A stretch of 64,000 nt of DNA from Escherichia coli 042 (GTDB lineage: Bacteria; Pseudomonadota; Gammaproteobacteria; Enterobacterales; Enterobacteriaceae). The stretch lies in NCBI RefSeq assembly GCF_000027125.1, contig NC_017626.1; one strand, written 5' to 3'. Position numbers: made by a program. Shown one piece after another: positions 60,301 through 64,000 of the stretch. Numbering within the stretch: the first letter of the stretch is position 1; every line of letters begins with the position of its first letter.

Positions 60301-63300
60301 CTCGAATGTCCTCTGGTTTTACCTTTAACAGAGCCGCAAATTTTAGCGCAGCGTCGGTATTTACCGGTATCTTGCCGTTCAGATACTGGCTAACGGTGCC
60401 TTGAGATTCGAATCCCAACAACTCAGCCGCCAGCTCTTGAGTCAGCTTCAGCTCTTTTTTTCTTGCATTCCATGCGGCTTTTAAATTCTTGCTCGCTTCT
60501 GGAGTTGCAATCACTTCGCGTGTTTTTTTCATACATAGAGTTTATTTGTTTTACCAATATTATCAAAGATAGTCTGGCTATTGATCTTTAAAATTAGCGG
60601 GGCTAATATTTGCTCGAGGCATAACGTAGAAGGTTGGCTATGAACTTAAGAGACTATTTAAAAGAGAAACATATCACCCAGCTACAGTTTGGGAAGCTAA
60701 CGGGTTTATCTCAGGTGCATGTAAGTCGAGTGCTGGGGGGCTATGAAAGATTCAGCCCTGAAAAAGCATTACGTGTTGCTGAAGTAACGAATTTCGAGGT
60801 TACACCTCATGAACTCCGGCCTGATATTTACCCGAATCCAACCGACGGCTTACCTGTTGGATTCAAGGCTAACACACCAAATGCATCGGAGTTGATTCAT
60901 GAAAATCAGGCATGAGCACATCCGCATGGCGATGAATGCCTGGGCGCATCCGGACGGTGAAAAAGTTCCGGCAGCTGAAATAACCCGGGCTTATTTTGAG
61001 CTTGGTATGACGTTCCCGGAATTATATGACGACAGCCATCCGGAAGCCCTGGCTCGCAATACCCAGAAAATTTTCCGCTGGGTGGAGAAAGACACTCCTG
61101 ATGCGGTTAAAAAAATTCAGGCGTTGTTACCAGCGATCGAAAAAGCAATGCCGCCTCTGCTGGTGGCCCGAATGCGCAGCCACAGTTCAGCTTATTTTCG
61201 GGAGCTGGTGGAGACGCGGGAACGACTGGTGAGAGACGCTGATGATTTTGTCGCAGTGGCGATCGCTGGTTTCAACCAGATGAATCGTGGTGGCCCTGCA
61301 GGAAATATTGTGGCTGTGCATTGACTCGCAATATTCATACCGGATCACTTCCGGCAATTTGTGAGTAAAAAGATTCGGTATCAGAAGAGGTGAGTATGGC
61401 TAACGCCTGGCTCAGATTATGGCATGACATGCCAAATGACCCTAAGTGGCGAACAATTGCCAGGGTGTCAGGGCAGCCAATTGCAACAGTGATGGCAGTG
61501 TATATCCACCTTCTGGTGAGCGCGTCACGAAATGTCACGACATGTCACGGCGTGTCACTACGTGGTCACATTGATGTCACGACGGAAGATTTAGCAAGTG
61601 CGCTTGATGTGACGGAAGAAGTAATTGATTCAATTTTACAGGCAATGCAGGGGCGGGTACTTGATGGAGATTTAATCACCGGATGGGAAAAACGCCAGGT
61701 ACTGAAAGAGGACAATGGCAACGTTTCACAAACCGCGAAATCCCCGGCAGAGCGCAAGAGAGCGCAGCGCGAGAGGGAAAAATTACGAAAACAGAATGAG
61801 GGGTGTCACGACGAGTCACGCATATGTCACGACATGTCACGACGAGTCACGACAGATAAAGATACAGATAAAGAATTAAACCCCACACATAACGCGCACG
61901 TGCGCGAGAGTGCTCCGACCAGTGAGTCGAGTGGTACGCCGTTGCAGGCAGCAGAACCTGCATCCCTGGATGGACTGAGCGAACCCATCGGGAAATTTCC
62001 GATGGTCGATGACTGGCATCCGTCGCCGGATTTTCGACGACGGGCTGCGTTGTGGGGGATGGCTTTGCCGGAGCCGGAATTTACACCTGCTGAACTTGCC
62101 GCTTTCCGGGACTACTGGGCAGCGGAGGGGAAAGTTTTCACGCAGGTTCAGTGGGAGCAGAAATTCGCCCGTCACGTAAATCACGTCAGGGCGCAGGTTA
62201 AGCCAGTCAGCAAGGGGGTAAACCATGCAGCAGCACCAGGTGGCACCGCATCACGGGCAGTTCAGGAAATTCGGGCAGCACGTGAGCAGTGGGAACGTGA
62301 AAACGGATTTATCAGCGACGGAAACGGTCTGGAAGCTGTGGGAACTCATGGGGGAGGTTTATTCGAACCGCTGGACCCAGAAGAACGGGGCCGCACCTTC
62401 GAAGCTCTGGATTGCACAGATTGGCGCGATGACTGAGCAGCAAATCCGACAGGTCTGCCGCCAGTGCATGGACCGCTGCCGGGCGGGTGAAACATGGCCT
62501 CCGGACCTGGCTGAGTTTGTGGCGCTGATTTCAGAAAGCGGGGCCAATCCATTTGGCCTGACGGTGGATGCTGTGATGGAGGAGTACCGCCGCTGGCGTG
62601 ATGAATCCTGGCGATATGACGGAAGCGACAAATATCCGTGGCCTCAGCCTGTGCTGTACCACATCTGCCTCGAAATGCGTACCAGAGGGATTGAGCGCCA
62701 GATGACGCAGGGTGAGTTAAAACGACTTGCGGAACGGCAACTGACGAAATGGGCAAAGCATGTTGGTAACGGGATGAGTGTTCCGCCAGTGCGACGACAA
62801 CTGGAAGGGGCGAAACACCCGCAAGGGCCAACGCCAATTGAACGGCTGAAACAGGAATACGAACGCCGGAAGGCAGCTGGTTTTATTTGAATCTGAGAAA
62901 CGATTTTGTCGGAGGAAATTTTAATGGAAACCGTATTTGACGCACTGAAAGCAATGGGAAAAGCCACATCGGTAGAACTGGCCGCGCGACTTGATATCAG
63001 TCGTGAAGAGGTTCTCAACGAGCTGTGGGAACTCAAAAGAAATGGCGTCGTTGATAAAACTGGTCACACCTGGTTTCTGGCTGGCGAAGGTGAATCCCGG
63101 GTAACCGAAGAGCGGCCAGTAAAATCTGAAGCACAGGATATGCTGACCGGGGAGGTCGAACAAAAAGTTACCGCAGACATGATGATTGAGTTTATCGGTC
63201 AGGATGGTGCTAAAACGTGTGAGGAACTGGCGGGTAAGTTCGGCGTCAGTACTCGCAAGGTTGCCTCCACGCTGGCGGTGGTAACCGCAACGGGGCGGCT

Positions 63301-64000
63301 GGCACGCGTTAATCAGAACGATAAATTTCGTTACTGCATGCCGGGCGATAATTTACCAGCAGAGCCGAAAGCCGCGCTGGTAACGGAAAGTGATGGTAAG
63401 GCCTTTCCTCAGCCAGCAGGTGCTGCGTTACCAGTCCGGGAAGCCGCAACACAGGAAGAAATTAAAACAGAAACTGTGGCGGACATTGTGCAGCCGTTGC
63501 CATCGTTTACCGAAACGCAAGCAGATGAGCTGATTTTTCCGTCCCTTCGCAGGGCAAACCTGGCGCTGCGCAGGGCGAAAAGTGATGTTCAGAAGTGGGA
63601 GCGAGTCTGCGCCGCGCTGCGGGAGGTGAACAAGCACCGGGATATTGTTCGACAGATTACTGATTCTTCCCGCCGTGTTGTATCGGAAAAGTGATTGCCG
63701 GAGGCGCTTATGGCAAAAGTATTTACACCAGAAGAGCGGGAAGAAGTGAAGGCGCGCATTGTGGAATTCGTGCGCCTGAGCGGACGAGAAACTTTTCGAC
63801 AACTGGCAGATAAAACGGGTGTCAGTAAGACCGCTATTCGTCGTTTATCTGGTGCGCTTGCGGCCAGTGGTGATGTCTGGCTCTCTGGTTGCGGGGTATT
63901 TCCATCAGAGCAGGCGTATCGCGTATGGCGTAAGACACCGGAGAAGGCTGCTGACCCGACACTGATTCGAAAGTTACCTGACGGAGAAATACGTCGTTAC

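Follow-up and report, generated by a model that had tools for sequence, protein, structure and literature searches.

The window analysed here is a 64,000-nucleotide stretch of Escherichia coli 042 (contig NC_017626.1), whose end is, with near certainty, the early rightward operon of a Rac-like, PPompW-type lambdoid prophage located at ompW. The genes are arranged in the order cro-like, YdaT/CII-like, O-like initiator, P-like helicase loader, and then two further genes, referred to below as gene 1 and gene 2, which had been singled out in an earlier inspection of the sequence. The E. coli NCTC86 genome is identical (100%) over positions 61300-64000 and has been used for annotation and for extension beyond the window. 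The features of the locus are as follows.

61396..62436, + strand: O-like replication initiator with a DnaT-like domain and iteron clusters within the gene (Pfam DnaT 9.6e-18; phrog_1408 replication initiation protein 9e-117; NCTC86 PGAP annotation)
61532-61583 and 61803-61843: ATGTCACGAC repeats inside the O-like gene
62429..62890, + strand: lambda-P-like helicase loader, directly 5' of gene 1 (Pfam Phage_lambda_P 5e-16; phrog_109 P-like helicase loader 2e-63; PGAP 'replication protein P')
62911..62915, + strand: Shine-Dalgarno sequence GGAGG of gene 1, 8 nt 5' of the ATG (direct sequence reading)
62924..63694, + strand: gene 1, DUF1627/YdaW family, 256 aa, WP_000450705.1 (Pfam PF07789 3.4e-97; phrog_630 1.9e-134; 100% identical CDS annotated in NCTC86)
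62924..63088, + strand: winged helix 1 (WH1) of gene 1, residues 1-55; acidic; L34 and W50 are invariant (AlphaFold2 pLDDT 94-97; alignment A1)
63173..63343, + strand: winged helix 2 (WH2) of gene 1, residues 84-140, basic, weakly Ren/MarR-like (AlphaFold2 pLDDT 90-94; mean net charge +3.9)
63344..63496, + strand: acidic Pro/Ala/Glu-rich disordered linker of gene 1, residues 141-191 (pLDDT 39-51; mean net charge -5.7; alignment A1)
63497..63541, + strand: conserved short motif (L/I)PxF...(D/E)(D/E)LIxP of gene 1, residues 192-206, P193 nearly invariant (alignments A1 and A4)
63545..63688, + strand: basic C-terminal long helix of gene 1, residues 208-255, R216 nearly invariant (AlphaFold2 helices 208-237 and 239-255, pLDDT 90-95; mean net charge +5.7)
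63692..63709, + strand: TGA of gene 1 and 15-nt spacer with the GGAGG of gene 2 (63700-63704; 5-nt gap to the ATG; sequence reading)
63710..64000, + strand: gene 2, the 5' 291 nt of 393, DUF977/'LygF', a homologue in the family of lambda Ren; 130 aa when complete, WP_001141099.1 (scores of the complete protein: Pfam PF06163 2e-41; phrog_142 1.2e-43)

Most of what the original prediction had said about the layout holds. The 15-nt gap between the stop of gene 1 and the ATG of gene 2 (63710) is exact, GGAGG precedes each gene in agreement with the strong ribosome-binding sites that had been proposed, gene 2 does run off the end of the window, which contains the first 97 of its 131 codons, and an O-like initiator and a lambda-P-like loader are indeed found directly upstream. 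Both products were also correctly recognized as winged-helix proteins, with AlphaFold2 (AF2) models of this fold exceeding pLDDT 90 in each. Only the length of the first protein requires correction, from 257 to 256 residues, as the 257 codons include the stop (ATG 62924, TGA 63692-63694). Extension past position 64000 by means of NCTC86 provided the complete gene 2, with 130 codons before a stop that ends 102 nt beyond the window end (window-equivalent 64102). The two genes share a common reading frame. A promoter and terminator scan returned counts below the shuffle expectation, and the sole terminator-like site nearby is a weak one at the 3' end of P. Neither Rfam matches at the locus nor PHROG matches of the antisense ORFs were found.

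Genes 1 and 2 are confirmed as real genes rather than chance ORFs by their Pfam scores, by the occurrence of gene-1-like DNA in 2713 of 5426 complete E. coli genomes (up to eight match sites per genome, with O157:H7 strains among the multi-copy ones), by dN/dS values of ~0.3-0.5 among gene 1 alleles and by the winged-helix folds predicted with pLDDT >90. The locus itself is ordinary and already annotated, with both proteins represented in RefSeq and Pfam; the present analysis adds descriptive detail and not a new kind of system.

Architecture of the gene 1 family

Gene 1 scores 323 bits against Pfam DUF1627 (PF07789; cut-off 28.1), with model positions 1-155 of 155 placed on residues 91-245, while the phrog_630 match spans the full length. 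An alignment of 43 full-length homologues (A1) together with the AF2 model revealed a common architecture, to which gene 1 conforms: WH1, WH2, a disordered linker, the IPxF...DDLIxP motif and a C-terminal helix. The linker differs in length between members, and some DUF1627 proteins contain three winged-helix repeats. WH1 has the predicted topology alpha-beta-alpha-alpha-beta-beta and is acidic on average in the family (mean net charge -2.3 over the 43 homologues, of which -1.5 on average for helix 3). The region of WH2 (residues 82-137) matches the profiles phrog_142 (6e-6) and phrog_1687 (4e-7), and its comparison with the winged helix of DUF977 by hhalign gives an E-value of 8e-5 and a probability of 62%. 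The C-terminal long helix is peculiar to the DUF1627 family. For the C-terminal module, the profile built from alignment A4 has no match among PDB sequences at E-values up to 10, and DUF1627 is its only Pfam match.

Foldseek comparisons of the gene 1 and gene 2 models with the PDB, and of the gene 1 model with BFVD, yielded generic winged-helix matches only. Among the relatives considered were the Z-alpha domains, which contact Z-form nucleic acid by a conserved Asn and Tyr of helix 3 and a Trp of the wing, as in ADAR1. Weak matches to Z-alpha were seen at the level of both sequence and fold, but we rejected a function in binding Z-DNA or Z-RNA, as the key residues are absent or unconserved: the position of the Asn is taken by Leu31 in WH1 and by Ala in WH2, the equivalent of the Tyr is not conserved across the family, and only W50 in the wing is invariant.

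Gene 2 and the Ren family

The full-length product of gene 2 scores 141.6 bits against Pfam DUF977 (PF06163; cut-off 22.1), and the part encoded in the window alone scores 96.6 bits. Against phrog_142, named 'Ren-like exclusion protein', gene 2 gives an E-value of 1.2e-43, with positions 1-115 of the 116 in the profile aligned, compared with 1.6e-41 for lambda Ren, and a direct BLASTP comparison of the two proteins gives 4e-9 at 29% identity. They have in common the C-terminal motif N..I(C/F).ECRxSxxMxRVL, which takes the form ECRQSxxMxRVL in gene 2; alignment A2, with lambda Ren among its members, has the invariant columns N102, C108, R109, S111, M114 and R116. Judging from these sequence comparisons, it is nearly certain that gene 2 encodes a true homologue of lambda Ren, and it occupies Ren's slot after the helicase loader. 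The proposal that the slot is a home of variable accessory genes is correct; ren is the first gene after P in lambda.

Like Ren, the gene 2 product is small and basic (both pI ~9.9) with an N-terminal winged helix (residues 7-64, AF2 pLDDT >90), and it is encoded in an operon of the pR type, past the O/P replication genes, the lambda order being O-P-ren. It differs in having the DUF1627 gene between itself and P and in its length of 130 aa versus 96 aa, with an N-terminal extension (MAKVFTPEEREE...) and an insertion of 19-34 residues between the winged helix and the C-terminal motif. Pfam DUF977 matches gene 2 but misses lambda Ren. The central winged helix is the variable part of DUF977 alleles.

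Ren was named 45 years ago, and its only known phenotype concerns Rex exclusion, from which it shields the infecting phage and not the host. On Rex+ lysogens, heteroimmune lambda with a mutated ren gene shows poor growth, a defect whose suppressors are located in O and P. Two-hybrid signals of RexA and RexB were seen with O and with Ren, those of Ren being modest, and a RexB-Ren interaction was also found by yeast two-hybrid analysis, in a map where Ren is a promiscuous partner (PMC3224144). The gene is non-essential in lambda (PMC10695390; PMC3640518). According to Thomason et al., every module of initiator and helicase loader has Ren alongside, and a role in replication is suspected. The original prediction was to be refuted if the genes were clearly homologous to replication accessory proteins of established function; for gene 2 this is half the case, as it has a known and named homologue, but one whose mechanism is not established.

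A separable cassette behind replication genes

In a survey of 160 loci, the DUF1627 gene directly follows a replication gene in 151, this gene being a P-type or DnaC-type loader or, in 11 loci, an initiator-like gene. In the 80 close loci, whose gene 1 allele is at least 95% identical to ours, a loader is directly upstream in every case, of the P type in 39 and of the YdaV/DnaC type in 41; the downstream neighbour is DUF977 in all 80 of these IMG/VR loci, always with the same 15-nt spacer. Of 80 distant loci, 71 have a replication gene ahead of the DUF1627 gene, and some distant members are instead located directly after recE. Many of the DUF1627 loci examined have a Ren-like gene alongside. 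Genes 1 and 2 are shown to form a separable cassette, whose recombination is independent of that of the replication module.

Essentially the same gene 1 allele is found with two unrelated types of loader, which argues against a specific physical partnership, and the idea of a loader-specific partner is unsupported; variants of the N-terminal WH1 show only a loose correlation with loader type, as expected from linkage. An obligate two-gene system was rejected, as PPompW phages carry DUF1627 without DUF977, while mEp460 and PhiR46_1 carry DUF977 without DUF1627; in mEp460, LygF directly follows the O-like gene. Apparent natural fusions of DUF1627 and DUF977 (P0003 and P0005) were also rejected as a functional link, being single ENA contigs with junctions that resemble frameshifts or errors, and the O::DUF1627 and YdaU::DUF1627 chimeras (P0121 and P0138) are deletion products of decaying prophages, uninformative as domain fusions.

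Possible roles and comparison with known systems

As outlined above, the identities and genomic context of both genes are nearly certain. Concerning their function, we infer that they are most likely non-essential accessory proteins of the early operon, of the Ren type, whose action would be directed against exclusion or take place at the interface with replication. At the level of mechanism, we tentatively prefer, with somewhat less than even confidence, a Ren-type counter-exclusion protein encoded by gene 2 and a related adaptor encoded by gene 1. Both proteins would be made alongside the replication proteins in lytic growth. By analogy with Ren, the gene 2 product may protect the replication phase of the phage from Rex-type abortive-infection exclusion by resident prophages, via contacts with exclusion proteins and/or the initiator complex in which the basic winged helix and the C-terminal ECRQS..M.RVL helix would be used. 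The prophage has no rexAB beside its repressor, so any target of gene 2 would be heterologous. The gene 1 product could be an adaptor of related use, whose WH2 and C-terminal helix, both basic, would bind nucleic acid or a partner, while the acidic WH1, the acidic linker and the short motif would engage another protein, and which might thereby modulate or mask something that arises at the stage of replication or recombination. Counterpoints to the Ren-type reading are that a conserved position in lambdoid phages may reflect gene order alone, that gene 2 has only 29% identity with Ren and, in the pairwise BLASTP comparison, a 19-residue insertion, that DUF977 misses lambda Ren, that either gene can occur on its own and that the two-hybrid signals of Ren are modest.

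The position behind a loader or initiator, kept in 151 of 160 loci, could also suggest that one or both proteins have the initiator, loader, DnaB or origin as a binding partner and tune phage replication itself (for example its initiation, the tethering to the membrane or the switch from theta to sigma), exclusion playing no part. Such a role in replication would agree with the suspicion of Thomason et al. concerning Ren, with the location of ren suppressors in O and P and the two-hybrid signals of O with RexA/B, and with the basic WH2, basic C-terminal helix and basic gene 2 product, all of which are compatible with DNA binding. We consider it rather unlikely, as the same gene 1 allele occurs about equally with P and with DnaC-like YdaV loaders, and with different initiators too, some distant DUF1627 members follow RecE, ren is dispensable for lambda growth and replicative killing, and neither gene product is homologous to any characterized replication factor.

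The original prediction had also considered regulators, and in their strongest form these would be sequence-specific repressors or activators of delayed-early or host genes, similar to MarR or IclR. Winged-helix folds in both proteins, Foldseek matches to the DNA-binding domains of MarR, IclR, GntR and MntR, basic recognition helices in WH2 and gene 2, and the variability of the DUF977 winged helix, as expected of differing specificities, would fit such regulators, and K-12 YdaW is among the predicted transcription factors of one survey (PMC9308461). However, all helix-turn-helix and winged-helix matches of both genes in Pfam and NCBIfam, including the MarR, IclR and GntR profiles, fall under the curated cut-offs (the gathering score in Pfam), and the Foldseek E-values (5e-4 to 2e-2) are weak and indicate similarity at the level of fold only. 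Besides, the best whole-protein matches of gene 1 are protein-binding scaffolds with tandem winged helices, the 'recognition' helix of WH1 is acidic, there are no repeated operator-like sequences near the genes, and no regulatory function has ever been ascribed to lambda Ren, all of which renders regulation quite improbable.

A classical repressor or host-defence role is unlikely for either protein, and the last suggestion of the original prediction, defence-associated genes, is extremely improbable when taken as defence or superinfection-exclusion genes (morons) expressed from the prophage to protect the lysogen: although phrog_142 is classed as 'moron, auxiliary metabolic gene and host takeover' under the name 'exclusion protein' and the nin-type region of lambdoid phages often holds such cargo, neither gene belongs to a PADLOC family (PADLOC-DB gave only weak matches to the winged-helix parts of Csa3/CARF models, at 6e-5 and weaker, and none for lambda Ren), the genes are tightly packed in a repressed early lytic operon behind O/P, with no promoter-like site on the + strand between the P gene and the end of gene 2 (and fewer sites in total than in shuffled sequences), and the precedent of Ren, which guards the infecting phage and not the host, suggests that it is the phage that counteracts exclusion and not the host that is defended.

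If the winged-helix proteins prove to be counter-exclusion factors, this would help to explain the coexistence and superinfection of lambdoid prophages, including Stx phages, in polylysogens. DUF1627 genes are present in about half of the complete E. coli genomes.

Among proteins of known structure, the best Foldseek matches of the whole gene 1 model are ScpB, subunits of ESCRT-II and UFL1/DDRGK1, which likewise contain two consecutive winged helices. These matches are weak (E-values of 5e-4 to 5e-3, TM ~0.2, rmsd 10-16 A, with flexible linkers in the model), and there is no sequence relationship. In gene 1 the winged helices are joined by a flexible linker, whereas in the scaffold proteins they are packed together, and the C-terminal motif and helix of gene 1 have no counterpart.

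Among the closest known systems is also YdaW of the K-12 Rac prophage, which belongs to the same family (DUF1627, PHROG 630) as gene 1 and, like it, is encoded immediately behind the helicase loader gene, which in Rac is ydaV. K-12 ydaW follows a DnaC-type loader and gene 1 a P-type one, and ydaW is a pseudogene of ~151 aa that comprises only WH1 and WH2, with nothing after WH2, whereas gene 1 is full length. The only experimental lead is that the truncated K-12 YdaW was one hit of an overexpression screen for alleviation of the toxicity of the retron-Sen2 toxin RcaT, after which 11 blockers were re-tested; we count the ydaW result at the level of the screen only (bioRxiv 10.1101/2020.06.22.160242).

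RacC is a prophage-encoded blocker of RcaT, and it adjoins the trigger of this toxin, recE. Like RacC, gene 1 would be a small early gene of a prophage with the trigger of an abortive-infection system encoded next to it, YdaW was a hit in the same RcaT screen, and distant DUF1627 genes directly follow recE; gene 1 and RacC have no sequence similarity, and the analogy is positional and speculative. A broader proposal, which in its entirety we regard as unlikely, would make DUF1627/YdaW proteins a widespread, hitherto unrecognized family of phage counter-defence adaptors in Enterobacteriaceae, related to Ren via WH2 and encoded beside abortive-infection triggers (initiator/loader or RecE). The post-loader slot would then serve 'anti-exclusion' in general, with Ren, DUF977, DUF1627 or Rrf2-like winged-helix proteins as interchangeable occupants, and the DUF1627 proteins would block or mask triggers or toxins as RacC does for RecE and RcaT.

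The two genes and their prophage setting

Gene 1 encodes a protein of the DUF1627/YdaW family and gene 2 a protein of the DUF977 family, which several phage records call 'LygF', a mere label. Their features in the window are as follows:

62911-62915, + strand: GGAGG, 8 nt 5' of the gene 1 ATG
62924 (ATG) to 63692-63694 (TGA), + strand: gene 1 ORF, 257 codons including the stop, i.e. 256 aa
63700-63704, + strand: GGAGG of gene 2
63710 (ATG), + strand: start of the gene 2 ORF, exactly 15 nt past the gene 1 stop; the ORF leaves the window

The 257-aa product of the original prediction is one residue too long; the 15-bp spacing, the second gene running off the end and the ribosome-binding sites, with GGAGG ahead of both ATGs, were placed correctly. 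Both genes share one reading frame and are separated by a single TGA and 15 nt (63692-63712). Rare database entries presenting DUF1627 and DUF977 as one 'fusion' protein (P0003, P0005) look like sequencing errors.

Over 61300-64000 the window matches E. coli NCTC86 (NZ_CP019778), and numerous further B2-type strains, at 100% identity, which allowed the proposed look beyond position 64000: gene 2 is whole in the NCTC86 record, with 130 aa, and hence ends 102 nt past the window. The equivalent region of NCTC86 is a lambdoid prophage adjoining ompW, with the annotated order integrase, excisionase, exonuclease, dicB, Rha, ydfC/B/A, CI-like repressor, cro-like fragment, YdaT-family gene, DnaT-domain initiator, replication protein P, DUF1627 (WP_000450705.1), DUF977 (WP_001141099.1, 130 aa), DUF4406, Ead/Ea22, more small ORFs, hokD, DUF968, RusA and Q.

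Two features of this region were noted in passing. Iteron-like 10-bp repeats (ATGTCACGAC and one-mismatch variants) form two clusters ~270 bp apart (61532-61583 and 61803-61843) inside the O-like initiator gene; they contain 6 of the 10 matches in the window, none of 100 shuffles gave ten matches, and the clusters probably form the origin from which the phage replicates, comparable to ori-lambda. The gene at 60899-61324, which follows the cro-like gene and precedes the initiator, occupies the position of lambda cII and is annotated 'toxin YdaT family protein', a RefSeq name that may be misleading, since descriptions of YdaT make it a CII-like regulator and not a toxin.

Both genes are real, as evidenced by Pfam family scores far above threshold, by the abundance of gene-1-like DNA (2713 of 5426 complete E. 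coli genomes, in up to 8 places per genome), by dN/dS of 0.3-0.5 among gene 1 alleles, and by empty searches of antisense ORFs against PHROG and of Rfam. Their exact proteins are already in RefSeq and belong to long-standing Pfam families, so this content is known and unremarkable for a lambdoid prophage; our additions are descriptive and modest, namely how the domains are arranged and charged, the placement after loaders whatever their type, and an in-frame junction fixed at 15 nt.

Family and architecture of the two proteins

Judged by its sequence, gene 1 encodes a full-length, textbook YdaW/DUF1627 member: residues 91-245 match Pfam DUF1627 (3e-97), and PHROG 630, of unknown function, spans the whole protein. 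The family is small and narrow, with 182 representatives (many of them fragments) after 50% clustering of 1.84 billion proteins and with named members in E. coli, Shigella, Salmonella and Trabulsiella. The following architecture emerges both from 43 aligned full-length homologues (23-95% identity) and from the AlphaFold2 model:

Residues 1-55: first winged helix (WH1), pLDDT 94-97; L34 and W50 invariant
Linker between WH1 and WH2: variable
Residues 84-140: second winged helix (WH2), pLDDT 90-94
Second linker: Pro/Ala/Glu-rich, disordered, of variable length
Short motif: (L/I)PxF...(D/E)(D/E)LIxP; P193 nearly invariant
Residues 208-255: long C-terminal helix, pLDDT 90-95; R216 nearly invariant

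The winged-helix N-terminus anticipated for gene 1 corresponds to WH1. Family-wide mean net charges alternate along the chain, from acidic WH1 (-2.3; its 'recognition' helix -1.5) through basic WH2 (+3.9) and the acidic long linker (-5.7) to the basic C-terminal helix (+5.7). WH2 weakly resembles the winged helix of the Ren family (phrog_142 6e-6, phrog_1687 4e-7, hhalign E 8e-5 with a probability of 62%). The number of winged-helix repeats varies among family members, some of which (P0221, P0239) carry three ahead of the conserved C-terminal motif and helix. Foldseek with the whole model best matched the tandem winged-helix scaffolds of UFL1/DDRGK1, ScpB, ESCRT-II and SelB, at fold level only (E 5e-4 to 5e-3), and its single-domain matches include MarR-type and Z-alpha domains; a Z-alpha identity was ruled out on key residues in the 43-homologue alignment. 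A profile search with the C-terminal module found no relatives outside the DUF1627 family.

Among the related proteins, P0121 is a chimera of an O-like initiator N-terminus with a distal DUF1627 part and P0138 a similar one with a YdaU/DUF1376 protein; both appear to be deletion scars of decaying prophages. The Actinobacillus phage vB_Apl-pPE4 record (GenBank PP818812.1, 10071-10806) holds a gene with 86% DNA identity to the E. coli prophage gene, and its host assignment or purity looks doubtful.

Sequence comparison likewise identifies gene 2 as a homologue of phage lambda Ren. Its full-length product scores 2e-41 with Pfam DUF977 and 1.2e-43 over the whole profile of PHROG 142, 'Ren-like exclusion protein', which lambda Ren from J02459 matches at 1.6e-41, and direct BLASTP aligned it to lambda Ren at E 4e-9, with 29% identity and a single gap of 19 residues. 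When 14 DUF977 variants are aligned with lambda Ren, invariant columns fall mostly within the C-terminal motif N..I(C/F).ECRxSxxMxRVL. In the AlphaFold2 model of this HTH-like product, residues 7-64 fold with confidence (pLDDT >90) into an N-terminal winged helix, and the helical C-terminus is less confident. Two Shigella phages have RefSeq records in which NCBI already names close relatives 'Ren-like exclusion protein'.

Among DUF977 alleles the two ends are conserved, and the variation lies in the central winged helix, its recognition helix included. Across the DUF977/Ren-like alleles (L001 11411-11803; L003-L082) the N-terminal MAKVFT.EERE and the C-terminal end are nearly invariant, and the recognition helix with the adjacent Lys-rich insertion is of at least two very different types.

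Gene neighbourhoods among relatives

In 80 close IMG/VR loci (gene 1 identity at least 95%) a DUF977 gene always follows at the same 15-nt distance, with alleles of 51-100% identity, and the immediate upstream gene is a lambda-P-type helicase loader in 39 and a YdaV/DnaC-type loader in 41. Nearly every residue that distinguishes the two main groups of gene 1 alleles lies in codons 5-31 (62924-63020); these variants track the loader type loosely, with exceptions both ways, and both occur with both main gene 2 alleles. The pattern is as expected from mosaic recombination, and codons 5-31 look like a recombination junction. In 80 distant loci (32-50% identity) DUF1627 is preceded by a DnaC/IstB-like (39), a P-like (21) or an HTH_36 initiator-like gene (11) and followed by a 78-aa CxxC Zn-ribbon-like ORF (33), a DUF977/Ren-like gene (11) or an Rrf2-like winged helix (3); a few Salmonella members come after recE instead. 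GenBank PPompW phages have O-P-DUF1627 without DUF977, and 'LygF' without DUF1627 directly follows an O-like gene in mEp460 and an ExoVIII-like gene in PhiR46_1. On the evidence of the close and distant loci and of these phages, DUF1627 is the first gene past the replication module with any loader type, a robust rule, and its pairing with DUF977 is a linked yet separable cassette.

The Zn-ribbon-like ORF (72-78 aa, CPxCG...KCPxDHYR; L092-L171, e.g. L139, also L084 743-964 and L087 5213-5431) has no Pfam or PHROG match. In Salmonella prophages (L083 2026-4768, L085 1777-4756) the distant DUF1627 gene overlaps the 3' end of recE (Exonuc_VIII) and does not come after a helicase loader.

A possible Ren-type role

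Beyond the established identity, architecture and position of the genes, we infer their role from Ren. According to the supplement to Thomason et al., ren mutants of heteroimmune lambda show poor growth on Rex+ lysogens, this defect has suppressors that lie in O and P, two-hybrid assays pair RexA and RexB with O and Ren and not with P, and every initiator-helicase loader module comes with a ren gene. RexB-Ren also appears in a yeast two-hybrid map, where Ren is a promiscuous partner (PMC3224144), and ren is dispensable (PMC10695390, PMC3640518). The reading we tentatively favour is that gene 2 would be a Ren-type factor, co-produced with the replication proteins, that shields the replicating phage from abortion where resident prophages carry Rex-like exclusion systems, and that gene 1 might be an adaptor of related use, its basic side made up of WH2 and the helix and its other side of the acidic WH1, the acidic tail and the short motif. 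One independent experimental hint comes from an overexpression screen, in which the prophage genes that eased toxicity of the retron-Sen2 toxin RcaT included the truncated YdaW of K-12 (bioRxiv 10.1101/2020.06.22.160242). That DUF1627 as a whole is a family of anti-abortive-infection adaptors we regard as unlikely; if true, it would be of moderate interest.

A purely replicative role seems rather unlikely, and the use of the same gene 1 allele with two unrelated loaders speaks against a specific replication partnership. The original prediction had envisaged regulators or accessory/defence-associated genes; accessory winged-helix genes they are, and a Ren-type role is likelier than either regulation or defence. 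Sequence-specific transcription regulation is quite improbable, given the lack of any HTH family match at threshold, the acidic WH1 and a fruitless search for operator-like repeats. Prophage-expressed defence is highly improbable, with PADLOC negative and the region lying within the repressed early operon, with no + strand promoter-like site from the P gene to the end of gene 2.

Gene 2 agrees with the Ren family in every testable character of membership, and both gene 2 and Ren are basic, with pI ~9.9; gene 2 differs from Ren by its length, its insertion and the one gene that separates it from P. Gene 1, in turn, differs from the ydaW of the K-12 Rac prophage, a pseudogene that has lost the C-terminal part and retains WH1 and WH2 only.
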